Positions 23,534-38,463 of a stretch of 45,307 nt of DNA are shown piece by piece (the stretch's first letter is position 1; every line of letters begins with the position of its first letter). A program made the translations under genes and the position numbers. The stretch covers positions 1-45,307 of the forward strand of contig JAYZBV010000025.1 in NCBI GenBank assembly GCA_036338595.1, given 5' to 3'. The notes below the pieces were generated by a model. It searched no databases and had not been told where the DNA came from. It worked only from the letters and a program-made list of their open reading frames with translations. The stretch comes from Planctomycetota bacterium (GTDB lineage Bacteria; Planctomycetota; UBA8108; UBA1146).

Positions 23534-24147
23534 GCAGGAACTCTGCCGCATCCACACCTCCGCTGCTGATCTTGTCGCTCACCCTGTCTCTGGCACTACC
23601 ACTGCAGTCAGGCTGTGAAGGAGTCGCGCCGGCTCGTCACGACTCCGGAAGTGGTTCTGTCGCTTCTCAACTGGAACAAACGCTCTGGAGTCCCACTCTG
23701 CACTGGAGCGGCATTCGATTCCGATTTGAACTGACTCCCGGTGAAGAGAACCTCACCCCTCAATTCCTTTACGAGGGTAACTCTGACATCCTTCGAGTGG
23801 GCCAGCGGCAGGTAACTCTGATTCGAACCCGGTTCAAGATCGACGGAACCTATTTCGACTGGCCAGTAGAGAGCATCATCTGGATTCATCGAATCCCCGA
23901 CACCGATCGACCATTCTTTCGACGCGAAGGCGCCCTGCAACTGACCTGGGTCGGTAACGGCAAGCATGCGGTCGTGGAGGAGCAATGCCAGGACGGCACC
24001 ATCGTGTGGACAATGTCTTCTGCACGGATCACACGTCACCAGGACGGGACAGTTCTGTATCAGGGCCGGGGTCCCGATGTGACACGAAGCGGTCCGTGGA
24101 AGCTGCTGCTCGGCCCGCGTGGCGAGATCGTTGCGGGTTCATCGTGA
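23530..24147 (+). CDS. Hypothetical lipoprotein
   Basis: Hydrophobic stretch ending LQSGC (lipobox-like); beta-rich body; 4-nt overlaps with both neighbours. Confidence 0.65.
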   Translation: MSRNSAASTPPLLILSLTLSLALPLQSGCEGVAPARHDSGSGSVASQLEQTLWSPTLHWSGIRFRFELTPGEENLTPQFLYEGNSDILRVGQRQVTLIRTRFKIDGTYFDWPVESIIWIHRIPDTDRPFFRREGALQLTWVGNGKHAVVEEQCQDGTIVWTMSSARITRHQDGTVLYQGRGPDVTRSGPWKLLLGPRGEIVAGSS

Positions 24148-25220
24148 AGCCATCGCCTGCACCGGAACACCTCTTCGACCTCTCGCCAGAGCACCTCGAA
24201 AAACACCTCGAGTTGTGGTGCCAGCAACACAACCTTCCGGGTTACAGGGCAAAGCAAATCGGGCAGCATCTGTTCGAGGGCAGAACCTACGACCCCGCTC
24301 AGATGACATCGCTTCCTGAAACCGTTCGCCAGGAGCTTTCCGCTGGACTGCTTCGATCACCGCTGATCACCGCAGAGAAGTTGCACTCGTCCGATGGCAC
24401 CATCAAGTTCCGGTTCCTTCTCGAAGACGGCCTCTCCATCGAATCCGTCTGGATTCCTACGGATGATCGAGGAACCCTTTGTATCTCCAGCCAGGTCGGC
24501 TGCGCTGCGGGCTGCACCTTCTGCGCCACCGGTACCATGAATTTGACTCGCAACCTGCACTCTCGGGAGATTGTAGCGCAATGGCTCGCTGTTCACGCAG
24601 CAACCACCGCCGAGGGATTGTGCGGTGTGACGCAGGTCGTCTTCATGGGGATGGGCGAACCGCTCCATAATTATCCAGCGGTATCTCTCGCCATCGATTG
24701 GCTCTCTTCTGCAAAGGGATTTCATTTCAGTCCACGTCGTATCACCGTATCGACCGTCGGCGTTGTCCCAAAAATCAGGGAGCTGGTCAAGGACCACCCC
24801 CAGGTTCGTCTTGCAGTCAGCCTTCACAGTGCTATTGCGGAGACCCGAGACAGCATCGTGCCCATCAATACGCGCCACGATCTTGATCAACTCGGAGCAG
24901 TTCTGGAGGAGGTCAAGGACGACTCCCGCAGGATCAGCATCGAATATGTGCTGTTGCCCGGGGTCAACGATTCCGAGGAGGAAGCGATTGCGCTGGCCCT
25001 CTTCGCAGCGAGATGTGGCGCACACATCAACCTGCTTCCCTTCCACCCCTTCGAAGGTGCGCCCCATGCCGCTGCGGGAGCAGCAGAGGTGGGACGATTC
25101 CAGTCGATGGTTCAGAAGAACTACGAGGGCTCCGTCACTGCCCGTCGCAGCCGCGGCCTCGATATCGACGGAGCCTGTGGCCAGCTGGTGCTCAAGACGC
25201 GCCCAGATCCGTCGAGCTAA
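24144..25220 (+). CDS. rlmN: 23S rRNA (adenine(2503)-C2)-methyltransferase RlmN
   Basis: TLCISSQVGCAAGCTFCATG (radical SAM), VFMGMGEPLHN, DIDGACGQL; GTG at 24144 overlaps previous stop. Confidence 0.93.
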   Translation: MKPSPAPEHLFDLSPEHLEKHLELWCQQHNLPGYRAKQIGQHLFEGRTYDPAQMTSLPETVRQELSAGLLRSPLITAEKLHSSDGTIKFRFLLEDGLSIESVWIPTDDRGTLCISSQVGCAAGCTFCATGTMNLTRNLHSREIVAQWLAVHAATTAEGLCGVTQVVFMGMGEPLHNYPAVSLAIDWLSSAKGFHFSPRRITVSTVGVVPKIRELVKDHPQVRLAVSLHSAIAETRDSIVPINTRHDLDQLGAVLEEVKDDSRRISIEYVLLPGVNDSEEEAIALALFAARCGAHINLLPFHPFEGAPHAAAGAAEVGRFQSMVQKNYEGSVTARRSRGLDIDGACGQLVLKTRPDPSS

Positions 25221-25260
25221 AAAACAAGGGGAAACCGCAAAGCGGTTTCCCCTTGTGATT
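25221..25260. terminator. Intrinsic terminator between convergent genes
   Basis: Perfect 15-bp stem ACAAGGGGAAACCGC-AAA-GCGGTTTCCCCTTGT (25224-25256); A-run on left gives U-tail on minus strand. Confidence 0.85.
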
Positions 25261-25283
25261 CATCATCTTTCGATGGTGAACCG

Positions 25284-26507
25284 TTAGCATCCATCGCCCA
25301 GAGCAGATTCGAGCTGGAGCAAATCCGGAATGTTGTTTGAATCGCGATCAAAAACCTTCGGATCCGGTTTCGGTTCTGGCTTCGGGTCTGGCTTCGGCAC
25401 CGGCTTGGGAGTGGGTTTCGGCTTCGGCTTTTCCCACACTGGCTTCGGCTTCGGCTTGGGCTTTTCCCACACTGGCTTCTTCTCGCCAGCCTCAGCCTCA
25501 CCTGCAGTCGCCTTACCCTCCTGCTCCGCAGCGCGAGCCGCTTCGCGTTCACGCCGCACCTCAGCAAAAGAGCGTCCTTCAGGACGACCAAAAAGCGTCG
25601 GAGAGACTCCCGAGTTGAGTGCGATCTCATCGTAGTTCTGTTCGAGACTCAGTTCCCCGTCCTCGAAGATCTTCTTGATGGTAGGAATCTTGATCCAGCG
25701 ATTTCGATCATCGCTGAAGCGGATTCGAGTGTACTCGCTGAAGAAGACTTCCTTCTTGATCACTGCCGGAGCCTGACCTTCGTTCCAGGTCTTGCGCAAC
25801 AGCAATCCGTCCTCTTCGGAGAATGCATACATCAGCACCTGGTTACCAGCAAAGGCTTTCAGTTCCACCATCTTGCAGGCAGTACCGAGGACCGTCTGGT
25901 CATTCTTCAGGGTGGCAACATAACCATTGTCCTGGAACGTGATGAAGAAGTCATCGATGTGCTTATCCCAGACAAAAACAATGAGAGTCTTGCCAGCGAG
26001 CGGAGACACCGCCCCCATCGCTTTGACCCATGCCTTTTCTCCGTCGTAAACCTGCACGAAGTTGAGCGGTTCGTTGTTCTTGGTCAGGCCGAGACCAGGT
26101 AGTTGCCATTCTTCTCGGATCATCAGCGCACCTTCACCGGTCCGCTTGAGGAAACGAGCCATCTTCATCACGGTCTCATTTGTAGGATCGATCTTCTTGT
26201 TCTTGAACCGTTCGACTCGATCAGTGATGGACAGCATCGTCTCGCGTCCGCCAACCGCTTCGAGGTACTTCTGGATCACCTCCATCGCAGCAGGATCACT
26301 CTTCGGAATTCCGAGAATGTCCCCATCCAGGATGTCATCCTCGTCGGCAGCCGGTTCCTTCGTTTCCTTGTCGGGGAGATCCACGGGCGCAGGATCCTGA
26401 ATGCGTTGAGTTGCAGCGGCCTGCTGGACCGGAGAGCTCCAGACCAGAAATGCCGCCAACAAAAAGAGGCCGGCGAGGTACCTTCCGGCGGGGGAAGCAG
26501 TATTCAT
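25284..26507 (-). CDS. Exported protein, LolA-like/outer-membrane lipoprotein-sorting fold, with Pro/Lys-rich tail
   Basis: Signal peptide; EVIQKYLEAVGG, QVYDGEKAW, EEDGLLLRK, LNSGVSPTLF patterns typical of LolA-like family; KP repeats at C-terminus. Confidence 0.65.
   Translation of the reverse strand: MNTASPAGRYLAGLFLLAAFLVWSSPVQQAAATQRIQDPAPVDLPDKETKEPAADEDDILDGDILGIPKSDPAAMEVIQKYLEAVGGRETMLSITDRVERFKNKKIDPTNETVMKMARFLKRTGEGALMIREEWQLPGLGLTKNNEPLNFVQVYDGEKAWVKAMGAVSPLAGKTLIVFVWDKHIDDFFITFQDNGYVATLKNDQTVLGTACKMVELKAFAGNQVLMYAFSEEDGLLLRKTWNEGQAPAVIKKEVFFSEYTRIRFSDDRNRWIKIPTIKKIFEDGELSLEQNYDEIALNSGVSPTLFGRPEGRSFAEVRREREAARAAEQEGKATAGEAEAGEKKPVWEKPKPKPKPVWEKPKPKPTPKPVPKPDPKPEPKPDPKVFDRDSNNIPDLLQLESALGDGC
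25357..25481 (-). repeat. Coding Pro/Lys repeat (KPVWEKPKPKP x2, PKPxPKP)
   Basis: GGCTTTTCCCACACTGGCTT at 25426 and 25459 (33-bp period) plus GGCTTC hexamer repeats. Confidence 0.85.
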
Positions 26508-26701
26508 CGAAATCAGTCCTTCCAGCGAGCCAGGAAGTTTTCTGCTTCCCGACGGTGATCCAGTGTTCAGTGCCCCGATCTTCGTCGCCGAGTGGTCCCC
26601 TGTGGGTTCTTCGGCATCGGGCCAGTGTCAGATGAGTACCCGGCATCCGCCAGATTTCGGAATCTCGGACTTACGCAGGATACTGTGCGGACCGCTCCGG
26701 G

Positions 26702-27895
26702 TCAAAACGACCCGGAAACGTCACCTTTGGCCTCCTCAGGGCTGCTGGTGGCAGGAACCGGCGTCATCGGCCCAGGATCCCCCATCAAGTGCGCAAAACC
26801 CTCCCTGCGTAGCCAGGAGCGTACCGTCTGTAGAGGTACGAAGAGTCCCATATGAGGCACCACCATCGGAGACCTCTTGCCGTAGGTGTAGATCATGCTG
26901 CTGATTCCCACCAGCCTGCCATCGCCAGCGAGGAAGATCCCGCCGCCGGAGTTGCCGAAAAAGGTCGGCGCACTGACCATCCAGAAAACCTCATCGGCGA
27001 CAGGTTTGTACTGTGATGAGATCTCTCCGATGGTCGGTAGCGGCTGGTTTCCCAGGGGACAACCGACAGCATACACGGTGTCGAAAACCGACAGTTGAAG
27101 GCACGCTTTCTCGGTTGCCGGCTCTGCCAGGAAGGACCATTGCCGGGTCAACAGGACTCGCACCAGCGACAGGTCAGAGGCGGGCAAGGAGGCGATCTCC
27201 ACACCCTCATGGATTTCGCTTCCCAGTCGGCCAAGCTCTGGATCGAAGAACCGGATCTCGCGGACAACCACCTTTTCGCTGGAGAAATCACGCACTTCTT
27301 CAACGACATGGTATGCAGTCACGATCCACGTTGCCCACTGGTTTTCATCCACCTGATCACTGCTGACCACGACACCGCTTCCGACGGTACCGTTGCCTCT
27401 CAGTTGCACCACTGGGTAGATCATCCGTTCCACCTTGTTGCGGTGATTCCCGGGAACATACTGTCTCTGGGCAGGCGACTTTGCCGGACCCATCGCATCG
27501 ATTCTCGCTTCGATACGAGAATCCAGGGCTTCGATCTTCTGGTGCGTTTGATCGATCTCGTTATCGACCCAACGCTTCAATCCATCGCTGGTTAGATCCA
27601 GTTCTCTCATGATTCTGGCGCGCTCTTCCTCGAGAATCTGGCTCGAGAGTTCGGCCACGGGACTCGTTTCTGGAGCGATCTCGAAGTCACTGACTTCGGA
27701 GTTGATCACCACATCCAGTTCATCCTGCAGATCGGCCACGAATTGTGGCTGGGTAGCGCCGTGGTCCACGGTGCTGGATACCGCTTCGGCGGTCGCAACC
27801 TGCTCGGAGGCCATCGGAGAGATGGACACACTCCATAGCAGTGCCATGGCCACGAAGATGGCAAGTGCCGCGCGATTGGGCTGGTAGTCCTTCAA
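26702..27895 (-). CDS. Exported trypsin-like (S1) serine protease with N-terminal coiled coil
   Basis: Catalytic triad motifs IVTAYHVV, SDLSLV, GNSGGG; signal/anchor at N-terminus; no PDZ domain seen. Confidence 0.88.
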   Translation of the reverse strand: MKDYQPNRAALAIFVAMALLWSVSISPMASEQVATAEAVSSTVDHGATQPQFVADLQDELDVVINSEVSDFEIAPETSPVAELSSQILEEERARIMRELDLTSDGLKRWVDNEIDQTHQKIEALDSRIEARIDAMGPAKSPAQRQYVPGNHRNKVERMIYPVVQLRGNGTVGSGVVVSSDQVDENQWATWIVTAYHVVEEVRDFSSEKVVVREIRFFDPELGRLGSEIHEGVEIASLPASDLSLVRVLLTRQWSFLAEPATEKACLQLSVFDTVYAVGCPLGNQPLPTIGEISSQYKPVADEVFWMVSAPTFFGNSGGGIFLAGDGRLVGISSMIYTYGKRSPMVVPHMGLFVPLQTVRSWLRREGFAHLMGDPGPMTPVPATSSPEEAKGDVSGSF

Positions 27896-28065
27896 GTTTC
27901 CCCCGTTTCGGTGCGGGCAGGCCCCGGAACCGTCGGGACCATCGGTACTGGATGGCCCTCACAGGAGACTACGATGAGAAGGTAGAGTCGGGCAAAGCAC
28001 CCGAGCCGCGATCGGTTGAATCCAGGGAGTATCGAGCAAGGAACGGCAGATCTGCGACCATCTGC

Positions 28066-30843
28066 TCAGTTCTGATCCGCCTTCTGATCGGTCGACTCCG
28101 CATCGGTTGCGGCTTCCGATGGTGGCACCGAAGGGGGCACCATTGTTTCACCTGAATAGATCAGTTTCAGCAATCGATCGGGCACGTGCACGACCCGATC
28201 TGCGGGACGCCCGCCGGTCCTTTCCCGGACGGATTCCAGTTTCAGCGCCTGCTCGATCACCTGCGTCTTGGGAGCGTCCAGTTCTACCGTGATTCGATCC
28301 ACGATCTTCTCGTTGACCAGGACAGCGAGAGAGATCTCCGAAGGCTCGAGCAACTCTTCACTATGCTCAGGCCAGGGCTCCTGATCCAGTGCAGTCTGTT
28401 CGCCGATCTCTTGCCACAACTCGTGAGCCATGTGAGGCGCGAAGGGAGCCAGCAGCACGATAAATGTCTTGAGGGTCTGCCGGTCGACCTCCTCCAGGCT
28501 GAGTTCATCTCCTCGCAGCAACTTCACGAATTCCATGAAGGCACTGATCGCCTTGTTGAGGCGGAAATTACGAATCGCCCGACTCACACGCCTGACGAGA
28601 CGGTGCTTGGCAACCAGCACATTTCGGCTCACGAACCGTCCCTTGCCGTGGCGGTGCAGGATCATCTCGTGGGTTCGCTGAAGGAATCGGGCGCAGCCAC
28701 GCAATCCCTCATCATTCCACTCTGCATGGTCCTGAGGCGGTCCGAGGAACAGCAGGTGCAGCCTCATCGCATCGGCTCCATACTTTTCCAGGTACCCCTC
28801 CGCGAGCACTCGGGGTCCCCTGTGGGCACTGGCTGAATCCACATCCTCGGTGGCATCGGCGGCACGGATACGCCCCTGATTGAAGAGCCTGCGGAACGGC
28901 TCGCGCCGCGCCGTGATTCCCAGTTCCCTGAGAAAGTGGCTCACGAACCGGACATAGAGCAGATGCAACTCAGCATGCTCGATGCCGCCCACGCAGAGAT
29001 TCACCGGAGTCCAGTGCGCCAGTTGCCGGGGCGAGGCGATCTGTCCCTCGAGTCCGGGATCGAGTGACCGCAGGTGGGTCCAGCAGGAAGCGATCCAGTC
29101 CGGCATCGTATCGGTACAGCGCCTCGCGGATCCCCCGCATTTGGGGCACTCGGTCTGGATCCACTCCTCATAACTGGAGAGTCCACTTTCCCCTTCGACA
29201 GGTTCCTTCAGCTGATCGATTTCAGGAAGTTCCACAGGAAGTTGATCTTCCCGAACCGGCACCTGGCCGCACTCGGAACATTCAACGATGGGAATTGGTT
29301 CCCCCCAGACCCTCTGGCGCTCGAATGCCCAGTCGTGCAATTTCCAGTCGATGTGCGACTCGACCAGATCGCGCGCCTCCAGCGATGCTTGCATCGACCG
29401 CGCAGAGTCCGATCCATCGCCGCCCCTGCGACGTCCTGAGCGGCGCCTTCTTCTGCCGTGGTTCGACTGGCCCCTGCTCGACGGTAATCCAAAACTCTGT
29501 GCAAATTCCTTGTGCGCCGGATGTGCGGAAGGAATGCCGAGGATCGCTCCGAAACGAATCTCTGGCAGCACATAACTGCTGACCCAGATCGGCATCTTGT
29601 CGAGAGTGACTGGATTGAGGCAGTATCCACCGGTCGGGACTCCATCGGCATTCGAACGTCCAGTGATCCGTTCTCGTTCGCTGAGACTGCCACAATTATC
29701 GAGGTACTGCTGCACATCATCCTTCTGAATCGGATCGATGATTTTTTCCAGCAACGGATGCTCCGGGCAAAGAACCACGAAGGTCGCTTCCGCCAGGGCG
29801 TCAATTCGCCACGAGAAGACATCGAGCTCGTCCCAGCCATCGAGCAACTCTGCGCTGGCCTTGAGGGTCAGGCGAGTCCCCTCACGGCGACCGATCCAGT
29901 TCCGCTGCAGCAGTTTGGTACGAGCAGGCCATTTCAGCTGTTTCAATCCCGAGTGCAGAGATTCGGCGTAATCGGTGATGGCAACCTTCCAGCCATCTTC
30001 GTAGCGCACCAGCCCCTTTTCGTGGAGTTTCAGGAAGATCCACTGAGACCAGCGATAACACTCCGGATCGGAGCTGTTGAGTTCGTGATCCCAGTGCACC
30101 ATCGCGCCGAAGTAATGAAGTTGATCTCGCATCTTCTGGATGCCTCGCTCGACAACCTGCTGCGGCGGAATCTTCGCTGCTCGCGCTTCCTCCTCGATGG
30201 AAAGACCAAAGGAGTCCCAACCCATCGGGCGAAAGACTTCGCGTCCTCGAGATCGCTGATACCTCGCCACCACATCGTTGATGGCGATCCCCCTGAGTTG
30301 ATTGACGCTGAAACCGTCGAGGGAAGGATAGGGAAACATATCCAGACAGAAGAAGGGCCGTGTCGGTGGGTCGTCAGGAGCATGCGCGGACTCGGCAGAG
30401 TCTTCTTCGGCAGAGTCTTCTTCGGCAGAGTCTTCGTCGGTAGAGTCTTCGTCGGTAGAGTCTTCGTCGGTAGAGTCTTCTTCGGTAGAGTCTTCTTCGG
30501 TAGAGTCTTCTTCGGCAGATTCTTCATCTCCAGTGACATCGGCAGGAGCGTCCTCGGCAGTGGTCTCCTGGTCAGCGGTTTCTTCGGTTTCTACCCCGTC
30601 AACTGCTACTGCATCTGCGGACGCATCATCCGACGCATCATCCGATGCGGTCTCATCGGAGGTTGTCTCCTCGACAGAAACTTCTTCGGAAACAGATTCA
30701 GTGCCGCTGCCCGCATCGGTTTTCGACTCGCCACCCACTGACGAGGGAGCATCGCCGGAGTCGGGTTGAATCGGCGAGATGGGTGGATTCGCGAGCCAGT
30801 GCTCGCGCCAGCGGCGTTCCAGTTGCAGTAGATCGACCGACAA
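28066..30843 (-). CDS. Leucyl-tRNA synthetase paralog with degenerate HIGH/KMSKS/editing motifs (putative pseudo-synthetase)
   Basis: LeuRS landmarks LDMFPYPS, PMGWDSFGL, QRNWIGR, RQRVWGEPIP, GGIEHAELHLLY, YGADAMRL, LLAPFAPH; TTG at 30843 after GAGGAGG; uninterrupted frame. Confidence 0.9.
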   Translation of the reverse strand: MSVDLLQLERRWREHWLANPPISPIQPDSGDAPSSVGGESKTDAGSGTESVSEEVSVEETTSDETASDDASDDASADAVAVDGVETEETADQETTAEDAPADVTGDEESAEEDSTEEDSTEEDSTDEDSTDEDSTDEDSAEEDSAEEDSAESAHAPDDPPTRPFFCLDMFPYPSLDGFSVNQLRGIAINDVVARYQRSRGREVFRPMGWDSFGLSIEEEARAAKIPPQQVVERGIQKMRDQLHYFGAMVHWDHELNSSDPECYRWSQWIFLKLHEKGLVRYEDGWKVAITDYAESLHSGLKQLKWPARTKLLQRNWIGRREGTRLTLKASAELLDGWDELDVFSWRIDALAEATFVVLCPEHPLLEKIIDPIQKDDVQQYLDNCGSLSERERITGRSNADGVPTGGYCLNPVTLDKMPIWVSSYVLPEIRFGAILGIPSAHPAHKEFAQSFGLPSSRGQSNHGRRRRRSGRRRGGDGSDSARSMQASLEARDLVESHIDWKLHDWAFERQRVWGEPIPIVECSECGQVPVREDQLPVELPEIDQLKEPVEGESGLSSYEEWIQTECPKCGGSARRCTDTMPDWIASCWTHLRSLDPGLEGQIASPRQLAHWTPVNLCVGGIEHAELHLLYVRFVSHFLRELGITARREPFRRLFNQGRIRAADATEDVDSASAHRGPRVLAEGYLEKYGADAMRLHLLFLGPPQDHAEWNDEGLRGCARFLQRTHEMILHRHGKGRFVSRNVLVAKHRLVRRVSRAIRNFRLNKAISAFMEFVKLLRGDELSLEEVDRQTLKTFIVLLAPFAPHMAHELWQEIGEQTALDQEPWPEHSEELLEPSEISLAVLVNEKIVDRITVELDAPKTQVIEQALKLESVRERTGGRPADRVVHVPDRLLKLIYSGETMVPPSVPPSEAATDAESTDQKADQN
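30392..30526 (-). repeat. 15-bp coding tandem repeat, 9 units, encoding (E/D)EDS(T/A)
   Basis: TCGG(C/T)AGAGTCTTC(T/G) units starting 30392, 30407, ... 30512 (last unit slightly degenerate). Confidence 0.95.
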
Positions 30844-30940
30844 GGGCCTCCTCGATCCCAGGGCATTACCCGACGAGTCAGCCGGTCCCCCAGGAACGCA
30901 TGATCGTAGGTGCCAGAGGGTGCGGCGACAATCGGTTCCC

Positions 30941-30968
30941 TTGACCCAAGAGTGCACCGGGCTATCCT
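30941..30968 (+). promoter_or_regulatory. Putative sigma70 promoter for tRNA-Ala
   Basis: TTGACC-N16-TATCCT about 85 bp upstream of the tRNA. Confidence 0.55.
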
Positions 30969-31052
30969 CTGGAGATCCTGGCGGAGGAACCGGGCGGCGG
31001 CGGCTGATTCATCGGCAACGGCCACCTCAACGGCCCCTCCGAGGAAATCATT

Positions 31053-31128
31053 GGGGCTGTAGCTCAGCTGGGAGAGCGCCTGACTGGCAGTCAGGAGGTC
31101 AGGGGTTCGAGCCCCCTCAGCTCCACCA
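31053..31128 (+). tRNA. tRNA-Ala(GGC)
   Basis: Cloverleaf GGGGCTG...CAGCTCCACCA, G3:U70, anticodon arm CCTGA-CTGGCAG-TCAGG, TTCGA loop, encoded CCA. Confidence 0.98.
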
Positions 31129-31142
31129 TTTTGAACCGATGT

Positions 31143-31175
31143 GCCCCCTCGTCTGCCGACGAGGGGGCTTTTTTT
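31143..31175 (+). terminator. Rho-independent terminator after tRNA-Ala
   Basis: GCCCCCTCGTC-TGCC-GACGAGGGGGC followed by T7. Confidence 0.92.
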
Positions 31176-31337
31176 GAAGGGCACAATGGCTGCCGAAAAC
31201 TGATCGATCTGCCCCCTCGAGTGCCCGGCCTTCTCTCTATTAGATCGATGCGAGATTAGCAGGCGACGTCTGTATTCTCTCCGAGCCGCGGTGTATATCA
31301 GGCGTTGGAATTGCAACCGGGGAGGACCACAGGGGAT

Positions 31338-32528
31338 ATGCAGGACGTCGTTGTCGATCAACCCTACTCCTTTGTTGCGCCCTATCGCGGCAACATCCTG
31401 CCGCGCTTGCTGGGGCACCTGGTGATCCCCCGACTGATGCGCGATCGATACGGCATCGTCTCCAGCGAGGTGCACGGCGCCGACAAGATCCGTGCCGCGA
31501 TCGATGCCGGTCATGGCATCCTGATCACACCCAACCACCCACGACCCGCCGACCCGATGGCGCTGTACCCTCTGTCTCAGGCGACCCGATCGCTTTTCTA
31601 TGCCATGGCCAGCTGGCACATCTTCATGGAAGGGAAGTTACAGAGATTCGTCATCCGGATGATGGGAGCCTTCAGCATCTACCGCGAAGGGATGGATCGA
31701 ACTTCTCTGCAGTGCGCGATGGAGATCCTCGAGCAGGCGAAGCGGCCCCTGGTGATCTTCCCCGAGGGCGCGGTCTCTCGTACCAATGATCTGCTCAATC
31801 CGCTGATGGAGGGGATCTCGACCATCGCTCGTGGCGCAGCACGCAAGCGCGCTGCCGGCGATGGCGGCAAGGTGATCATCTTTCCGCTGGCGATCCGCTA
31901 TCACTTCGAGGGCGATCTGACCGGGACGCTGGAACCGGTGCTGGAACAGATCGAGCACCGTCTTTCGTGGGCTCCTCAACGCAATCTCGATCTACTGACA
32001 CGGATTCGCAAGATCGGAGGTGCGCTGCTGAGTTTGAAGGAGATCGAGCACCTCGGTGACACCCAGTCGGGCGACCTGTGGGGACGGGCCGAGAAACTGA
32101 TCGATCACCTGCTGCACCCACTCGAGAAGGAGTGGCTCGATGGTCACCAGGACGGCAGCGTAGTCAAGCGCAGCAAGAACCTGCGCGCAGTGATCCTCAA
32201 GGGGATGATCTCTGGCGACATCGATGACGAGGAGCGAGACCGACGCTGGCAACAATTTGCAGCGCTGTACCTGGCACAGCAACTGTCACTGTATCCGCGC
32301 GGCTACCTCTCCTCCGATGCCCCCGCCGAACGATTTCTCGAGACGGTCGAGCGATTCGAGGAGGACCTGACCGATACCGCGCGGCCGCATCCACCCCAGC
32401 GGGTCACGCTGCATGTCTGCGATGGCATCGAGGTGCCGGCCGAGAAGTCGCGCGGCGACGATCCTCTGATGGGCAAGGTCGAGGCCAGCCTGCTCCAGGC
32501 GCTGGGTCTGGACCAGGAGAGTGATTGA
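31338..32528 (+). CDS. 1-acyl-sn-glycerol-3-phosphate acyltransferase family protein (extended C-terminus)
   Basis: NHPRPAD (HX4D), FSIYRE, IFPEG motifs; ATG 31338 preferred over TTG 31305. Confidence 0.85.
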   Translation: MQDVVVDQPYSFVAPYRGNILPRLLGHLVIPRLMRDRYGIVSSEVHGADKIRAAIDAGHGILITPNHPRPADPMALYPLSQATRSLFYAMASWHIFMEGKLQRFVIRMMGAFSIYREGMDRTSLQCAMEILEQAKRPLVIFPEGAVSRTNDLLNPLMEGISTIARGAARKRAAGDGGKVIIFPLAIRYHFEGDLTGTLEPVLEQIEHRLSWAPQRNLDLLTRIRKIGGALLSLKEIEHLGDTQSGDLWGRAEKLIDHLLHPLEKEWLDGHQDGSVVKRSKNLRAVILKGMISGDIDDEERDRRWQQFAALYLAQQLSLYPRGYLSSDAPAERFLETVERFEEDLTDTARPHPPQRVTLHVCDGIEVPAEKSRGDDPLMGKVEASLLQALGLDQESD

Positions 32529-33214
32529 TGGATTCCATCCGGTGGCGTCGTCTGGCCGTGGTTGTGCTGGGTCTGGGACTGTGGTTTCTGACCCAGTCGC
32601 TGCTCGGGGCGCGCACCTTACCGGCTGGCGGCGAGATCGCCGGTCAGGTGCTCTCGGAAGGCGATGGCTTGTTTCGCTGGAGTGCCCCATGGCACCAGAT
32701 GCTGGTCGCCAACGAAACGCTTGCCGATACGCTACTGATCTGTAGTTCCCTCGTCATCGATCTGATCGCCATCTTCATCATTCTGTCTTCCGTCTTCGGA
32801 GCGACGATGCGGCCCTTTCTGGCGCTGCTGATGCTCTTCATGCTGCGCCAGATCTGTCAGGGGCTGAGCCCACTGCCGGCCCCGACCGGCATGATCTGGC
32901 ACCATCCTGGATTTCCCTCGCTGCTGGTCACCTACCAGGTGGCCAACGACTTCTTCTTCTCGGGCCACACCGCCATCGCGGCCATCGGAGCCACCGAGAT
33001 GGGTCGGCTGGGCAGACGCTGGTGGATTCCAGCAGTTCTGGTGCTGCTGTTCGAGATGGCGACGGTGATCGTTCTCAGGGCTCATTACACGATGGACGTT
33101 TACGCCGGAATCGTCAGTGCGTTACTGGTGGCCATCATCGCAGCCCGCGTGGCCCCCCCGGTCGACCGTTGGCTCGCCGGCAGCAGCCCCAGCCCACCCA
33201 CTGCGACACCCTGA
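32525..33214 (+). CDS. PAP2-superfamily membrane protein, sphingomyelin/IPC synthase-like
   Basis: Multiple TM helices; DFFFSGHT and RAHYTMDV motifs; overlaps upstream stop. Confidence 0.8.
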   Translation: MMDSIRWRRLAVVVLGLGLWFLTQSLLGARTLPAGGEIAGQVLSEGDGLFRWSAPWHQMLVANETLADTLLICSSLVIDLIAIFIILSSVFGATMRPFLALLMLFMLRQICQGLSPLPAPTGMIWHHPGFPSLLVTYQVANDFFFSGHTAIAAIGATEMGRLGRRWWIPAVLVLLFEMATVIVLRAHYTMDVYAGIVSALLVAIIAARVAPPVDRWLAGSSPSPPTATP

Positions 33215-33298
33215 CTCCCGTCGCCAAACGGACCCCGATGATGTCCGCCTCGATCGCCTGCGGGCGCCGATAGCCCCTTCTGAAATCGTAGTCAGTAC

Positions 33299-34930
33299 TT
33301 GCCACGGCAGGGGTATCTCCTGACAATGCGGGGACTTGAGGATCCAACATGCGAGCCTTTCGCAGCCGGGAAGAGAGATGCCTTGACGTTCCGAACCTGC
33401 CGATCGCCCCGCTGGCGTCGGTTCCTGTTTCCCTGTTCCCTCGTGGTGGCTCTGTGCACACACGGCCTCGTTCTGGCCCAGACAGCCGGATCCGATCCCG
33501 AACAGATATCGCTCCGGGATGTGGCCGTGGTGGTCCCCATCGATCAGCAGATCGACGATTCGGTCGTCCGACGCTTCGATGCCACCCTCGCCGAACTTCT
33601 CAAGCGTGAAGTCCGGATCGTCATCATTCAACTATCGACCCCCGGCGGAACCATCGATGCCAGCCGAAAACTGGCAGAGTCGATCGACAACCTGACCGAG
33701 AAGGGTGTCGAGACCTTCGGCTGGGTGCCCAACGGTCAGCAGGCCTACAGCGGTGGCACGATGGTGGCTCTGGCATGCCGAAATCTGGTGATGGGAGATA
33801 ATAGCCGCATCGGAGATGTGCAACCGATCGACATCTTCGGCAACGAGTTGCCGGAAAAGATCCAGACCACGGTCCGGGCAGACATGCGTCGCTGGGCGCG
33901 AGATCGTGGCTACCCCATCGCCCTCGCCGAGGCGATGGTGACCAAGGAGATCACGGTTCTGAAGGTCCGTACTGCAGAGGGGCGTACCCTCTACCTGACC
34001 GAGCAGGAGTTTCAGGATCTGCCGGAGCATGAACGCAATAGCGCCCAGACGCAGAGGATCGTCGAGCGAGGAGAGATCCTCACCATCGACGAGAAGGAAG
34101 CCTTCGAGTACGGCTTCATCTCCCACATCTGCCTCACCCGAGAGCAACTGCTGACCGATTACGGCCTGACCCAGATGCGAGCGCTGACCGCCGATGAGGC
34201 ACTGGGACGTCAACGCATCGGTACTCCCGGCGGCTTTGCCCTCGATGCATTTCGGGACTGGGGCCGTTTCATCAAGTTCTTGCTGATCTTCGGTGCGTCT
34301 CTGGCACTGGTGGTCGAGTTCAAACTTCCCGGTGTCGGACTCGGCGCTTCCCTATCGCTCGGCTTCCTGTGCGTGTTTCTGCTCAGCAGTTTTGCCGACG
34401 GCAATGTCGGTTGGGTCGAACTCTCCCTGTTTGGACTGGGCCTGGCACTTCTGGTGATCGAACTGTTCGTGATCCCCGGTTTCGGAATCTCTGGAATCCT
34501 CGGCCTGGTCATCGTGTGCGTATCTCTGGGTCTGTGCTACCAGCCCGTAGATGCGACACTGAGCTTGCGCCAGTTGAGCGAGGATTCGCTGCAGGTCGCT
34601 GGCGGACTGACCACCGGATTGCTGGCGCTGCTGATCGTCTCCTACATCCTTCCCGGACGCTCTTCGCAAAGCGGTTCTCTCATCGACAAATCAACCCTGG
34701 CCACCGACGATAAGGCGATCGCCTCGCCTGGATTCGAGGGCGGCGCACTGGAGGTTGGCCAGCGCGGTTCTCCTCTCCAGGATCTGCACCCTGCAGGAAA
34801 GGTGGAATTCGAGGGCACTCCCTTCGATGTGGTCTCCGACGGGGGCTACATCGAGAAGGATAGCCTCGTTGAAGTGGTCGAGGTCGAGGGCAACCGCATC
34901 GTCGTCCGTGCTGTCGTCGAGGAGGCCTGA
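33299..34930 (+). CDS. Long NfeD protein (ClpP/crotonase-like protease domain + TM + OB fold); start probably somewhat downstream
   Basis: LSTPGG, AYSGG (Ser), PEKIQ (Lys), IALAEAMV, ELFVIPGFGISG, DLHPAGKV...VVEVEGNRIVVR. Confidence 0.88.
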   Translation: MPRQGYLLTMRGLEDPTCEPFAAGKRDALTFRTCRSPRWRRFLFPCSLVVALCTHGLVLAQTAGSDPEQISLRDVAVVVPIDQQIDDSVVRRFDATLAELLKREVRIVIIQLSTPGGTIDASRKLAESIDNLTEKGVETFGWVPNGQQAYSGGTMVALACRNLVMGDNSRIGDVQPIDIFGNELPEKIQTTVRADMRRWARDRGYPIALAEAMVTKEITVLKVRTAEGRTLYLTEQEFQDLPEHERNSAQTQRIVERGEILTIDEKEAFEYGFISHICLTREQLLTDYGLTQMRALTADEALGRQRIGTPGGFALDAFRDWGRFIKFLLIFGASLALVVEFKLPGVGLGASLSLGFLCVFLLSSFADGNVGWVELSLFGLGLALLVIELFVIPGFGISGILGLVIVCVSLGLCYQPVDATLSLRQLSEDSLQVAGGLTTGLLALLIVSYILPGRSSQSGSLIDKSTLATDDKAIASPGFEGGALEVGQRGSPLQDLHPAGKVEFEGTPFDVVSDGGYIEKDSLVEVVEVEGNRIVVRAVVEEA

Positions 34931-34932
34931 GC

Positions 34933-35415
34933 ATGGAAACAATGGATTGGTGGCTACTGTCGGTGCTCTGCATCGCTGGCCTGACACTCCTTTTCCTGGA
35001 GGTCTTCATCCCCAGCGGAGGGATTCTTGCCATCGCTGCCGTGCTCTGCATCGGCTACTCCATCTTGGAGTTGTGGCTCAAGGATTATCAATTGCTCGCG
35101 GTCATCTGCGCAGGTTTCACGGTTCTCTACACCGTGGCACTCTTCCAGTTCTGGGTCAAAAAAATCGGTCTGCATACCAGCCTCGACGAGGTCGCGCTCG
35201 GTGACGATGTGCGTTCAGCACAGGAACTGATCGGCCAACGAGGCCTGGTGATGTCAGATCTTCGACCGGCAGGGATCGCCCTGATCGCTGGACGACGCCT
35301 CGATGTGGTCGCCAATTCGGGCTACATAGATAAAGGGGATTCGGTCGTCATCATCCAATCCGATGGCAATCGTATCCTTGTCAGGAAATCCACTGAAGAA
35401 TCTCAAGACGATTAG
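34933..35415 (+). CDS. Short NfeD family protein
   Basis: LEVFIPSGGIL; C-terminal OB fold DLRPAG...DGNRILVRK. Confidence 0.88.
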   Translation: METMDWWLLSVLCIAGLTLLFLEVFIPSGGILAIAAVLCIGYSILELWLKDYQLLAVICAGFTVLYTVALFQFWVKKIGLHTSLDEVALGDDVRSAQELIGQRGLVMSDLRPAGIALIAGRRLDVVANSGYIDKGDSVVIIQSDGNRILVRKSTEESQDD

Positions 35416-35451
35416 AATCATGACGGCAAGACCGTCGGACAGGAGTTCGCG

Positions 35452-36516
35452 ATGGGTACTATTCCAGATCTAGCAACGACACTCTTGCTGGGGCAAACGA
35501 GCAACCCGATAGTCAACGTGGTGCTGCTCTTCCTCGTGATCGCCATGGGAGTGGTGCTGTTCATCTTCTTCATCACGTTCGGAAGATTGTACATCCAGGC
35601 CCTCTCCTCCGGAGTCAAGATCAGCGTCTTTGCCTTCATCGGAATGTGGCTCAGAAGGGTGAGCCCGAGAATCATCGTCGATAGCCTGATCATGTGCACC
35701 AAGGCGGGCATCAAGGATGTTCATACCAACAAGCTCGAAGCGCACTACATGGCCAAGGGCAATGTTAGTCGAGTGGTTCGATCGCTGGTTGCAGCCCACA
35801 AGGCGAACATCGATCTCAACTTTGACCAGGCTGCCGCCATCGATCTGGCCGGAAGAGATGTGCTCGAAGCGGTCAGAACCAGCGTGCTTCCAAAGGTCAT
35901 CGATGCCCCTTCGCGCGAAGGGGCACGCACCACGGTCGACGCAGTGGCAGGAGATGGCATCCAGTTGCGGGCACGAGCACGGGTCACCGTCCGCACCAAC
36001 CTGGCGCGTCTGGTCGGAGGTGCCACGGAAGAGACCATCATCGCTCGCGTGGGTGAAGGTATCGTCACCACCATCGGATCGGCTACGACTCACAAGGATG
36101 TGCTGGCCAATCCCGATCTGATGTCGAAAAAGGTGCTGGAGAAGGGCCTGGACTCGGGAACCTCTTTCGAGATCCTCTCCATCGACATCGCCGATGTCGA
36201 TGTCGGCGAAAACATCGGTGCAAAACTACAGGCCGAGCAGGCGGAAGCAGACAAGCGGGTGGCACAGGCGTTGGCAGAGAAGCGCCGTGCACTGGCTGTT
36301 GCCCAGGAACAGGAAAATGTCGCCAAGATCGCCGATAACAGAGCCAAACTGGTTCTCGCAGAGGCCGAAGTTCCTCTGGCCATCGCCGATGCATTCCGGC
36401 AAGGCAACCTGGGAGTGATGGATTACTACCGCCTCAAGAATCTCCAGGCAGACACCTCGATGAGGGAGTCCATCGGAGAAGATGACGAAGGTGGTTCCGA
36501 TGCCATCCACGACTAG
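35452..36516 (+). CDS. floA: Flotillin-like protein FloA (YqfA family)
   Basis: [73 protein letters not shown]. Confidence 0.95.
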
Positions 36517-36531
36517 AAGGACAAGACACCG

Positions 36532-37209
36532 ATGAAGGACATGAGTTGGATCTATCTGCTGATCTTCGTGGTACTTCCGATACTCAAGCGTGTCCTTGAG
36601 TCGCGGTCCGTTGCCAAGAGAGAGAAGGCGCGCCAAAGCACGCTGCAAGGAAGCAGGAGTGAACCAGCCTGGTCCCCTTCCACGGCCGAAGATGAAGATG
36701 AGCCGCTGACCCTGGCCGAGATGGAGGAGGAAGGCTGGATCGCTGCAGATCCGCGCCCGGTCGCCTCTTCCCGACCGCCGATACCAGCCGAAATCCGCAC
36801 CTTGCAGGAACTCGGTGGCGGCTGGGTCGAGGTGCCCGGAGTGACCTCCGGCGACAGCACCACGACCATCCACGACCCCGCCGCGACCAGACCCGCACCG
36901 CTTCCGCGCGCCGATCAGCATGGAGTGCCACCTCATCCCATCGATCTGCTGGAGCATATGCGACAGGAGATGGAGCAGGACGGGTTTGCCTCCGACCCCG
37001 TTCAGGACCCCTACCAGGTCGACGATCTGGAATCCGACCCCGTCCACGGTCCAGGGGCCTACGCTCTGCCCGCTGCCGGACATAAGCGCCACGGCAGGTT
37101 CCAACATGGCAGTGGTCGTCGCTGGAAATTGAGTCGGAGTGAACTGCGGGAACGCCTGGTATGGCGAGAGATTCTCGGCCCACCTGTGTGCTTGCGCGAA
37201 CCCGAGTGA
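36532..37209 (+). CDS. Hypothetical membrane-anchored protein, YqfB-like position downstream of floA
   Basis: N-terminal TM; low-complexity middle; C-terminal LRERLVWREILGPPVCLR motif typical of floA-downstream genes. Confidence 0.7.
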   Translation: MKDMSWIYLLIFVVLPILKRVLESRSVAKREKARQSTLQGSRSEPAWSPSTAEDEDEPLTLAEMEEEGWIAADPRPVASSRPPIPAEIRTLQELGGGWVEVPGVTSGDSTTTIHDPAATRPAPLPRADQHGVPPHPIDLLEHMRQEMEQDGFASDPVQDPYQVDDLESDPVHGPGAYALPAAGHKRHGRFQHGSGRRWKLSRSELRERLVWREILGPPVCLREPE

Positions 37210-37270
37210 AACCGCTCGCCGATACCGTGACCTACCGAGGAAGCCTCTGAGCCATCGATTGCAGGAGCAG

Positions 37271-37299
37271 GTGACGAAAGGACTACTGACCACTACAAT
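37271..37299 (+). promoter_or_regulatory. Putative sigma70 promoter for tRNA-Leu
   Basis: GTGACG-N17-TACAAT 40 bp upstream of the tRNA. Confidence 0.5.
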
Positions 37300-37338
37300 G
37301 GCCACCCGGTGGTGATCAGAAACAACGCAGCAACATGA

Positions 37339-37425
37339 GCCGGAGTGGCGGAATTGGCATACGCGGCGGATTCAAAATCCGCTGGCCTCACGGCCTTGTG
37401 GGTTCGAGTCCCACCTCCGGTACCA
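37339..37425 (+). tRNA. tRNA-Leu(CAA)
   Basis: GCCGGAG...CTCCGGTACCA, anticodon arm GCGGA-TTCAAAA-TCCGC, long variable arm GGCC-TCAC-GGCC, encoded CCA. Confidence 0.97.
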
Positions 37426-37454
37426 CTGCCCTGATGGGGCAACTCAGCGAGACG

Positions 37455-37505
37455 AAAAAAACAAAAAAAAAAGAGGGCGCATCGGTGTTGCCGATGCGTC
37501 CTCTT
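37455..37505 (-). terminator. Rho-independent terminator of rplM-rpsI
   Basis: Stem AAGAGGGCGCATCGG/CCGATGCGTCCTCTT with long A-run on left (U-tail on minus strand). Confidence 0.88.
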
Positions 37506-37527
37506 CAATTCAAGGCGATGGACGCGT

Positions 37528-37926
37528 CTAACGCTTGGAGAACTGGAACGACTTGCGAGCCTTCTTTCGGCCCGGTTTTTTCCGTTCCACCATCCGCGAG
37601 TCCCGGGTCAGGTAGGTTCCCTTGCGCAGCGCAGCTTCATTTTCCTCGCTCACACGTGCCAGCGCACGAGCAAGACCCATCACGACTGCCCCCACCTGTC
37701 CGGTGGTGCCTCCACCCTTGATGTTGGCCCACACATCAAATGATCCCTCTGCCTGAACGGCCCTCAATGGGTCAGAAAGACGCAACTGGTCGGGCGCGAG
37801 ACGGAAGTACTCCGTGTGCACCTTGCCATTGATGGTGATCTTGCCATTGCCCTCACGTATACGAACACGTGCGACGGCGGTCTTTCTTCGACCGACTCCC
37901 CAGACGTAGTCATTTGGCTTCGCCAA
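37528..37926 (-). CDS. rpsI: 30S ribosomal protein S9
   Basis: GVGRRKTAVARV, KGGGTTGQVGA, LTRDSRMVERKKPGRKKARKSFQFSKR. Confidence 0.99.
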   Translation of the reverse strand: MAKPNDYVWGVGRRKTAVARVRIREGNGKITINGKVHTEYFRLAPDQLRLSDPLRAVQAEGSFDVWANIKGGGTTGQVGAVVMGLARALARVSEENEAALRKGTYLTRDSRMVERKKPGRKKARKSFQFSKR

Positions 37927-37974
37927 GTCGTTCCTCCTGCTAATCCGGAGACCCCAGGGCCGCCGGCGGATCTA

Positions 37975-38463
37975 TCACTTTTTACCGGCTAGTTTATGCA
38001 CGGTGAACTGGATCTTCTCGAAGTGAGCTTCCTGAGCTTGCAATGTATGTTCGGGACCAGCAAACACCTTGAGTTTTGTCAGCATCTTGCGGCCAAGACG
38101 GGACTTGGGCAGCATCCGGCGGACCGCAAGACGAATCACCTCTTCCGGCTTCTTCTCGAGCATCCACTCCAGCGTGTTGGACTTCAGCCCACCCATGTAC
38201 CCCGTATGGTAGCGGTACACTTTTTTCTCACGCTTCTGTCCCGTAACTTGAATCTCGCGCGCATTGGTGACCACGACAAAATCTCCGCCATCGACATGAG
38301 GCGTGTATGTGGGCTTGTTCTTACCCATCAAGATGCGTGCGATCTTCACCGCCATGTGTCCAAGGATCTCCTCGGAGGCGTCCACGTGGTACCACTGGCG
38401 GACCACATCTTCCTTGCGCTGATTGAATGTCCGCTGCGGACTGTAGTACTGCATCTTCTCCAC
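37975..38463 (-). CDS. rplM: 50S ribosomal protein L13
   Basis: RQWYHVDA, LMGKNKPTYTPHVDGGDFVVVTNA, YHTGYMGGLK, RRMLPKSRLG. Confidence 0.99.
   Translation of the reverse strand: MEKMQYYSPQRTFNQRKEDVVRQWYHVDASEEILGHMAVKIARILMGKNKPTYTPHVDGGDFVVVTNAREIQVTGQKREKKVYRYHTGYMGGLKSNTLEWMLEKKPEEVIRLAVRRMLPKSRLGRKMLTKLKVFAGPEHTLQAQEAHFEKIQFTVHKLAGKK

Follow-up and report, generated by a model that had tools for sequence, protein, structure and literature searches.

Introduction

Leucyl-tRNA synthetase (LeuRS) is counted among the most evolutionarily stable of the synthetases. The present study concerns a LeuRS-derived gene, hereafter the paralogue, in a 45,307-nucleotide contig of a Planctomycetota bacterium (NCBI GenBank assembly GCA_036338595.1, contig JAYZBV010000025.1, positions 1 to 45,307 of the forward strand), the whole of which we call the window. 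Its product has kept the body of the enzyme and appears to have lost the chemistry.

Extra copies of LeuRS have been described from archaea. According to parts of a 2022 review of duplicated synthetases (PMC9437257), LeuRS-I of the Sulfolobaceae and LeuRS2 of the Halobacteria show impaired or absent aminoacylation and are suspected of a tRNA-dependent role outside translation; LeuRS-I, whose CP1 domain is disrupted, remains able to form leucyl-adenylate and to bind tRNA-Leu, and LeuRS2 retains weak charging. Table 1 of that review includes HisZ as a synthetase paralogue without aminoacylation that is kept for a non-translational role, and no LeuRS-derived paralogue appears in the same table as having acquired a new function (PMC9437257). 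A dead LeuRS from planctomycetes or other bacteria was not found in the literature searched, subscription-only papers lying outside its coverage.

The requirements of the canonical reaction are well described. LeuRS binds leucine through Y43, D80, the carbonyl of F41 and H547 of the GIEHA loop, and adenosine through Q580, N55, M582/V583 and the KMSKS loop (parts of PMC9424281). Mutants of the ZN domain of Escherichia coli LeuRS lower the kcat of activation by up to 800-fold, a value reached by W177A (parts of PMC13454842). By the account given in parts of PMC10450160, LeuRS urzymes nevertheless carry out low-level activation with no strict need for the His side chain of HxGH or the Lys side chain of KMSKS.

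A full-length LeuRS frame

The gene lies on the minus strand:

28066..30843, minus strand: coding sequence of the LeuRS-derived paralogue, 925 amino acids (aa) from TTG 30843, in a frame open up to GTG 30957

Counted from the GTG, the frame 28066..30957 (minus strand) runs for 963 codons without a stop. TTG at 30843 is the likely start because orthologues begin at the equivalent position (TTG, 'LTVDLHQLEQRW', in three same-genus genomes; ATG, 'MGVDLRDLEKRW', in L057; 'MPTIDLREIEKKW' in L063). The protein matches the Pfam families for the LeuRS editing domain, tRNA-synt_1 and Anticodon_1, and scores 584 bits in three separate stretches against NCBIfam TIGR00396 (leuS_bact; cut-off 548.4), compared with about 1000 bits for the true LeuRS of its relatives. 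It is of the bacterial and not the archaeal type, as the leuS_arch model gives 92 bits, and its alignment to the LeuRS of Thermus thermophilus (Tt) reaches 458 bits.

The AlphaFold2 (AF2) model has a mean predicted local distance difference test score (pLDDT) of 66.7 and a predicted template modelling score (pTM) of 0.58, with an acidic and an Arg-rich insert modelled as disordered. Its best Foldseek match is 2bte_A, the T. thermophilus LeuRS-tRNA complex (E 3.6e-53, TM 0.59/0.62, about 31% identity). Together with the Anticodon_1 match, the model indicates a LeuRS fold that includes the helical and C-terminal tRNA-binding domains.

Loss of the catalytic and editing features

Residue-level comparisons were made by alignment to Tt LeuRS, and family-wide comparisons between the consensus of 24 paralogue rows and that of 26 canonical rows. 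The altered sites are as follows:

30298..30342, minus strand: DMFPYPS followed by LDGFSVNQ, with SVNQ in the place of HxGH; G177, S179, V180 and Q182 invariant in 21 paralogues
29983..30009, minus strand: junction VRYED/GWKV at the site of the missing ZN1; Tt 151-189 absent
29365..29883, minus strand: homologue of the CP1 editing domain, residues 321-493, its active-site motifs degenerate (Pfam, Tt alignment, consensus)
29794-29820, minus strand: FTTRPDT changed to FSWRIDA, within CP1
29500-29556, minus strand: GTGAxMxVPAHDxRD changed to FGAILGIPSAHPAHK, within CP1
28807..28884, minus strand: FNQG, then RIR...HRGPRV, with an 11-residue linker for the leucine-specific domain and HRGPR for the KMSKS loop

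At the HIGH site, Tt H49-M-G-H52 corresponds to S-V-N-Q, so that none of the four positions is kept; each of the 23 paralogue rows that other genomes contribute at this site has the replacement too. At the KMSKS site, the KSKGN of KMSKSKGN aligns with AHRGP, the segment reading ...SAHRGPR; the pattern K[MI][SG]K[RST] is absent from 24/24 paralogue rows covering the site and from 39/39 paralogue-type database clusters. Two whole modules have no counterpart in the window protein, namely the ZN1 zinc module (Tt 151-189) and the segment comprising the leucine-specific domain and the start of KMSKS (Tt 580-639), and the consensus comparison agrees in both cases. The editing site has fared no better: the Thr-rich CP1 motif TTRPDT reads SWRIDA, and the aspartates of AHDQRD are replaced in SAHPAHK. 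In active enzymes, TTRPDT and the Asp residues of HDxRD have a catalytic role in editing. All of these losses of motifs and modules are family-wide differences, and they suggest that the window protein can no longer activate leucine, charge tRNA or edit.

A first-pass annotation, made from the window's sequence, had described an uninterrupted LeuRS-like frame of about 925 aa in which LDGFSVNQ (30298-30321) follows DMFPYPS (30322-30342) and RIRAADATEDVDSASAHRGPRV (28807-28872) stands directly behind FNQG instead of KMSKS. The absence of stops, the likely start and the Pfam and TIGR00396 matches confirm the former, and both motif readings hold at these positions. Its account of the loss was right for HIGH and KMSKS and incomplete beyond them, as ZN1, the leucine-specific domain and both editing motifs are gone as well.

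A canonical leuS alongside the paralogue

Each of the eight same-genus genomes holds a canonical-type TIGR00396 match (841-1000 bits, two of them truncated at contig ends) in addition to a paralogue-type match (577-596 bits). Canonical rows carry H[VM]GH in 26/26 cases covering the site and K[MI][SG]K[RST] in 27/27. The enzyme with HxGH and KMSKS for which the first-pass annotation had proposed a search is thus present beside the paralogue in the relatives, with HVGH and KMSK[RS]. In one genome, G018 (79% complete), canonical leuS is matched in full twice, at about 1000 bits each and on different contigs (C4:13089-15491 and C18:60146-62548), through a real duplication or a mixed bin.

The window's own assembly consists of 114 contigs, with a completeness of 88.3% and a contamination of 7.2%, and the paralogue is the sole LeuRS-like gene found in it. 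The 13.3-kb neighbourhood of the canonical leuS in the nearest relative, G004, has no blastn match in the window genome, and the other long frames there are without an orthologue as well; as a control, the paralogue region of G004 aligns to the window genome at 87% identity over 10.2 kb. Because the whole 13.3-kb block is missing while the control region aligns, the canonical leuS is most simply explained as lying in an assembly gap. The possibility, raised in the first-pass annotation, of a single leuS in a complete genome therefore does not apply: the paralogue is the one copy recovered, but from an assembly that is 88% complete and lacks the canonical region. On this reading, a separate canonical leuS does the charging.

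It would follow from the assembly taken at face value that the paralogue is a working, if unorthodox, leucyl-tRNA synthetase and the only one in its genome. Such a reading could also point to the TIGR00396 cut-off, which the protein passes, and to the urzymes, which catalyse without the signature side chains (parts of PMC10450160). We regard it as very remote: no HIGH position and no KMSKS is left, the protein is without ZN1 and the leucine-specific domain, a canonical leuS is found in every well-assembled relative, and the canonical region is missing here as a 13-kb block from an 88%-complete assembly. It was rejected on the lost catalytic features, the canonical leuS of the relatives and the assembly gap.

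Selection on the paralogue

Ratios of nonsynonymous to synonymous substitution rates (dN/dS) were calculated by the Nei-Gojobori method. The paralogue has a dN/dS of 0.153 against G004, at a dS of 0.42, and of 0.13-0.18 in other close pairs; for canonical leuS the same pairs of genomes yield 0.04-0.16, and the dN of the paralogue is 1.5-2.9 times higher. Per-domain values were pooled over four close pairs, two of them from one tight cluster and possibly sharing a branch. They amount to 0.098 for the folded core, 0.05 and 0.08 for the Rossmann halves, 0.03 for the linker, 0.08 for the helical domain, 0.12 for CP1 and the C-terminal domain, and 0.31-0.52 for the disordered inserts and tail. Purifying selection on the folded domains is strong. 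In the order-level clade, the two Rossmann halves (identity 0.61-0.66) are the most conserved parts.

That the gene is a pseudogene in decay, or that its motifs are artefacts of assembly, would be next to impossible to reconcile with these data. Decay, too, would lose all catalytic motifs, but no stop or frameshift occurs in the window copy or in the 23 other aligned order-level paralogue frames, the core dN/dS is about 0.10, the same replacement motifs recur across 33 genomes and 39 database clusters, and the family is as old as the class. Decay was rejected on the dN/dS and on the presence of the gene in 33/34 genomes of the order.

The view of the first-pass annotation, that this is a maintained and repurposed copy, is supported by the canonical gene in relatives, by the dN/dS (0.15 in the comparison with the nearest relative and about 0.10 for the folded core, with no frameshifted copy seen) and by the sharing of the motif loss, 33 of the 34 genomes of the order carrying the paralogue. 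Assembly errors, which it had named as an alternative source of the motif changes, are ruled out by 23 (HIGH) and 24 (KMSKS) paralogue rows from other genomes and by 37/39 clusters with the same replacements. What characterizes a pseudoenzyme, namely missing catalytic signatures next to a functional enzyme, under selection, is found here: the functional enzyme in 8/8 same-genus genomes, the selection in a dN/dS of about 0.10-0.15.

Distribution and origin

One of the 33 order-level occurrences is a contig-end fragment, and the remaining genome, G019, has the canonical copy only. Across the class (59 genomes, 7 families), all four other families possess a second LeuRS-like gene that is much more diverged and has the same gene order around it. 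We also surveyed 251 genomes sampled across the phylum (13 of the class, 238 outside) with a profile of the C-terminal third. Its 12 best matches (289-487 bits) correspond to 12/13 genomes of the class, and a second LeuRS-like locus was found in 0/238 genomes outside it, where this profile has exactly one match (at most 256 bits) in 222 genomes and none in 16.

Among 120 listed database matches, the top 39 clusters are of the paralogue type; 37 have [FL][ST]V[NS]Q, and two are partial or missed by the pattern. The other 81 all have K[MI][SG]K[SR], 80 as KMSKS and one as KIGKR. The named database members are metagenome-assembled genomes (MAGs) of a 'Planctomycetes/Planctomycetota/Planctomycetia bacterium'. 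The family is narrow, since only four of the 150 top representatives at 50% clustering are of the paralogue type.

In a quick, unrooted IQ-TREE phylogeny (60 rows, 814 columns, long branches flagged), a 100* branch separates 39 canonical rows and P0233 from the order-level paralogues (100*), the distant copies and P0125. The branching of the paralogue clade mirrors the genome families, as does that of the canonical clade. A single old origin is supported mainly by synteny, plus a shared 'AKH[RK]LI' helix; the paralogue is inherited vertically and is specific to the class. P0125 and P0233 are LeuRS-like representatives without HIGH (FRLEQ and LRIDQ, respectively) or KMSKS that keep HxxRD at the editing site; a scan of genome contigs with P0125 returned canonical LeuRS only, at no more than 41% identity and mostly from Bacillota.

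Kept, gained and newly fixed features

Apart from the sites listed above, the protein comprises the following features:

30370..30765, minus strand: acidic disordered insertion (residues 27-158) that separates the N-terminal LeuRS helix from the first strand of the Rossmann fold
30392..30525, no strand assigned: 15-bp tandem repeat within it, 8.9 copies, 95% matches, coding (E/D)EDS(T/A) pentapeptides
29404..29481, minus strand: Arg-rich disordered insertion GRRRRRSGRRRGG, residues 455-480, net charge +7 (family mean +5.4)
29131..29280, minus strand: four-Cys knuckle CSECG...CPKCGG (C522, C525, C566, C569)
28972..28989, minus strand: GGIEHA 'priming loop' of the aminoacylation pocket, invariant in order-level paralogues and lost in the distant copies of the class
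28345..28806, minus strand: helical anticodon-binding-type domain, residues 680-833, with a family-specific basic helix VAKHRLVRRVSRAIRNFRLNKA
28150..28344, minus strand: C-terminal LeuRS domain, residues 834-898
28069-28149, minus strand: disordered acidic tail after the C-terminal domain

Across the order-level family (21 sequences), DMFP.PS, GWD.F (with D210), RQR.WGEPIP, CVGGIEH (with H623) and LHL.YVRF are kept, and so are NQG with Q656 (in at least 90%), the four-Cys knuckle, the helical domain (mean pairwise identity 0.68, dN/dS 0.08) and the C-terminal domain. The substitutes at the dead sites are themselves fixed, as the motifs GxSVNQ, QGR and HRGPR: G177, S179, V180, Q182, R658 (at the position of M582) and R675 are invariant in the 21 sequences, and N181, G676 and R678 are conserved in at least 90% of them.

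The acidic insertion consists of 42% Asp and Glu, has a net charge of -54 and a pLDDT below 50, and ranges from 6 to 161 aa across orthologues, which suggests that it probably grows and shrinks through slippage of the repeat. The net charge of the folded core is -9, that of the whole protein -68. Paralogues and distant second copies alike have the four-Cys knuckle. The canonical LeuRS of the order (L011-L032) has lost the four Cys of this second Zn knuckle; the canonical copy of family f4 retains them. Distant copies from the class keep the Zn knuckle, the 'AKHRLI' helix and the helical and C-terminal domains, and they have lost GGIEHA and mostly GWD.

A putative RNA-binding pseudo-synthetase

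What survives in all members, then, is the helical anticodon-binding-type domain with its new basic helix, the C-terminal domain and the Zn knuckle. In LeuRS-tRNA complexes such as 2bte, these parts form the side of the enzyme that holds the tRNA. From its sequence, the paralogue may thus be a pseudo-synthetase that works as a non-catalytic binder, most likely of tRNA-Leu or a tRNA-like RNA, a reading that we hold with about even confidence. It is suggested by the survival of the tRNA-facing parts alone in all members, the most diverged included, and by the addition of a basic helix and an Arg loop. Its mode of action would be binding and not catalysis, with tRNA-Leu or a tRNA-like RNA as the partner; in the window's order, where D210, the GGIEHA loop and Q656 of the leucine/A76 pocket are kept, it may recognize the leucylated or free 3' end. 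The output could be sequestration, sensing or scaffolding, possibly linked to the envelope protease module described below.

Several observations weigh against this picture. It draws on conserved domains and added basic residues, and the net charges of core and whole protein are not expected of a simple RNA binder. A His occupies the place of R416, which in E. coli forms a salt bridge to the acceptor end (parts of PMC9424281). The tree is quick, unrooted and long-branched, so that the single origin is carried mainly by synteny. The complete loss of chemistry is likewise indicated and not proven, since urzymes retain some activity (parts of PMC10450160). Y172, the equivalent of the 'invariant' Y43 of LeuRS, varies to N or H in some members. 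Finally, the Rossmann halves are the most conserved parts, and a small-ligand pocket fits this pattern at least as well as tRNA binding does.

The protein might accordingly be a sensor in which the emptied pocket binds leucine, a leucyl-adenylate-like molecule or Leu-A76 and reports leucine or charging status without catalysis. HisZ and the leucine sensor function of eukaryotic LARS1 offer parallels. Besides the constraint on the dead Rossmann fold, the residues in the places of HIGH and KMSKS are invariant and not random, and order-level paralogues keep D210 (D80) and F170 (F41 backbone). They also keep GGIEHA with H623, equivalent to H547, which contacts the leucine carboxylate, and Q656, equivalent to Q580, which contacts the ribose 2'-OH (roles from parts of PMC9424281). 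The pocket is damaged in other respects, however: the Y43 equivalent varies as stated, the equivalents of N55 and M582 are Gly and Arg, which would fill the adenine site, and ZN1, which closes the pocket over leucine, is absent. Moreover, the distant copies in the same synteny have no GGIEHA and mostly no GWD, so a leucine pocket cannot be the function of the whole family. We consider a sensor of this kind unlikely.

Neighbouring genes

The paralogue is followed by two genes on its own strand, which converge with a third:

26702..27895, minus strand: membrane-anchored trypsin-like (S1, Trypsin_2) protease gene, first downstream, adjacent in 28/29 paralogue loci
25284..26507, minus strand: gene for an exported protein of LolA/LolB/RseB-superfamily fold with a Pro/Lys-rich tail (KPKPKPKPVWEKPKPKP...), second downstream, adjacent in 25/29 loci
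23985-25220, plus strand: rlmN (dual-specificity rRNA/tRNA m2A methyltransferase), TIGR00048 297.6 bits (cut-off 290)

The His/Asp/Ser triad of the protease is invariant in 29/29 orthologues, and a coiled-coil-like stretch precedes the protease domain. The LolA-fold protein has a signal peptide and an AF2 model (pLDDT 72.6) that matches 4z48_A (E 5e-9, TMt 0.62), with 3bk5, LolA3 and RseB scoring lower; it has no match in Pfam or NCBIfam, and an Atlas search gave a weak lead only (0.87). In the phylum sample, its gene is found in 12/13 genomes of the class and in 0/238 outside. Convergence of rlmN with the three-gene group is seen in 22/29 loci, and the misses of protease, LolA-fold gene and rlmN among the 29 loci all fall at contig ends. 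In G019, the paralogue, the protease gene and the LolA-fold gene are all missing and a different gene follows rlmN, which could reflect co-loss or one unassembled locus.

The genes of the group are separated by 170 and 194 nt and hence not coupled in translation. A search for RNA sequencing runs containing 26600-31000 listed none. A terminator scan, limited to consensus matches, found none between paralogue and protease gene, a weak one shortly after the third gene begins (26476..26453) and a strong one behind that gene (25256..25224). Three intergenic stretches around the paralogue fold no better than shuffles (z +0.84, -0.68 and -1.47), and Rfam over 25000-38000 gave two tRNAs only and no sign of a tRNA-like operator.

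On the other side, the gene for tRNA-Ala(GGC) (31053-31128, plus strand) is divergent, 210 nt upstream of the paralogue, and is followed by a strong terminator-like hairpin (31143-31168); that for tRNA-Leu(CAA) (37339-37425, plus strand) lies 6.4 kb from the paralogue. A cluster of NfeD, NfeD and FloA (flotillin) occupies 33299-36516 on the plus strand. In family- and order-level relatives it is the immediate upstream neighbour of the paralogue; the window's genus has an insertion of an acyltransferase and a PAP2 gene (31305-33214) between the two.

The constancy of this arrangement raises the question whether the LeuRS body serves as a platform for protein-protein contacts, a scaffold or regulator of the adjacent envelope module that needs neither RNA nor leucine. 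The order paralogue, protease, LolA-fold gene on one strand holds in 28/29 and 25/29 loci for the two neighbours, even where paralogues share only 23-42% identity; the LolA-fold gene has the same phyletic pattern, and all three genes are jointly missing in G019. On the other hand, the paralogue has neither a signal peptide nor a membrane segment, and almost nothing of its exported or membrane-anchored neighbours lies in the cytoplasm, which makes direct contact unlikely; the gaps argue against translational coupling, and a single locus left unassembled in G019, which is 93% complete, could account for the joint absence there. A pure scaffold is in our estimate improbable.

More specifically, the pseudo-LeuRS could be the cytoplasmic arm of a class-specific module with the S1 protease and the LolA/RseB-fold protein, which we think rather doubtful. 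Through such a module, the status of tRNA-Leu or of leucine would be tied to regulated proteolysis or to the handling of lipoproteins in the unusual planctomycetal envelope, or signals would travel the opposite way. The pair of a protease and a LolA/RseB-fold neighbour loosely resembles that of DegS and RseB. If real, the module would mean that a synthetase body serves in signalling, something for which bacteria offer no known parallel.

The neighbourhood and the distribution also bear on a possible role as a decoy or immunity protein that soaks up a natural product directed against LeuRS (agrocin/TM84-like, Leu-AMP mimics). Self-immunity copies of LeuRS reportedly exist, as in the case of AgnB2, and the leucine/adenosine pocket is partly retained in the order-level clade. 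Known immunity copies, however, are active enzymes that are encoded in biosynthetic clusters and have a narrow range. The paralogue is inherited vertically across a class, has housekeeping neighbours (rlmN, tRNA-Ala) and no biosynthetic genes beside it, and its distant members lack the pocket. A decoy is for these reasons scarcely credible and was rejected.

Discussion

A whole bacterial class keeps the full-length body of LeuRS with both active sites erased and with new invariant motifs in their stead. This constitutes a natural experiment on what the scaffold of a class Ia synthetase can do without chemistry, and it is likely to represent a new family of RNA- or ligand-binding proteins. It is also an annotation trap: since the protein passes the cut-off of the leuS hidden Markov model, it can pass for the housekeeping enzyme in incomplete genomes such as the present one and inflate calls of completeness or pathways. 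The first-pass annotation had foreseen that pipelines would label it leuS; JGI indeed writes leucyl-tRNA synthetase, NCBI mostly 'class I tRNA ligase family protein'.

The closest known protein is bacterial LeuRS (TIGR00396; T. thermophilus 1h3n/2bte, Neisseria gonorrhoeae 6q89/7nu*, E. coli 4aq7). The paralogue shares its fold and its order of domains, from the Rossmann fold through CP1 and the second Zn knuckle to the helical and C-terminal domains. Unlike bacterial LeuRS, it has no HIGH, KMSKS, ZN1, leucine-specific domain or editing motifs, has gained an acidic insertion and an Arg-rich loop, and coexists with the true enzyme.

With LeuRS-I and LeuRS2 it has in common that an extra LeuRS copy is kept beside the working one (parts of PMC9437257). 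It is not of the Sulfolobaceae LeuRS-I type, given its bacterial-type score and its lack of the ATP motifs; it differs from both archaeal proteins in being of bacterial type, in a bacterial class, with the ATP motifs and two whole modules gone. HisZ, in turn, is a class II HisRS core without an anticodon domain and has HisG as its partner, whereas the window protein is a full-length class Ia body; the resemblance between the two is one of kind and not of family.

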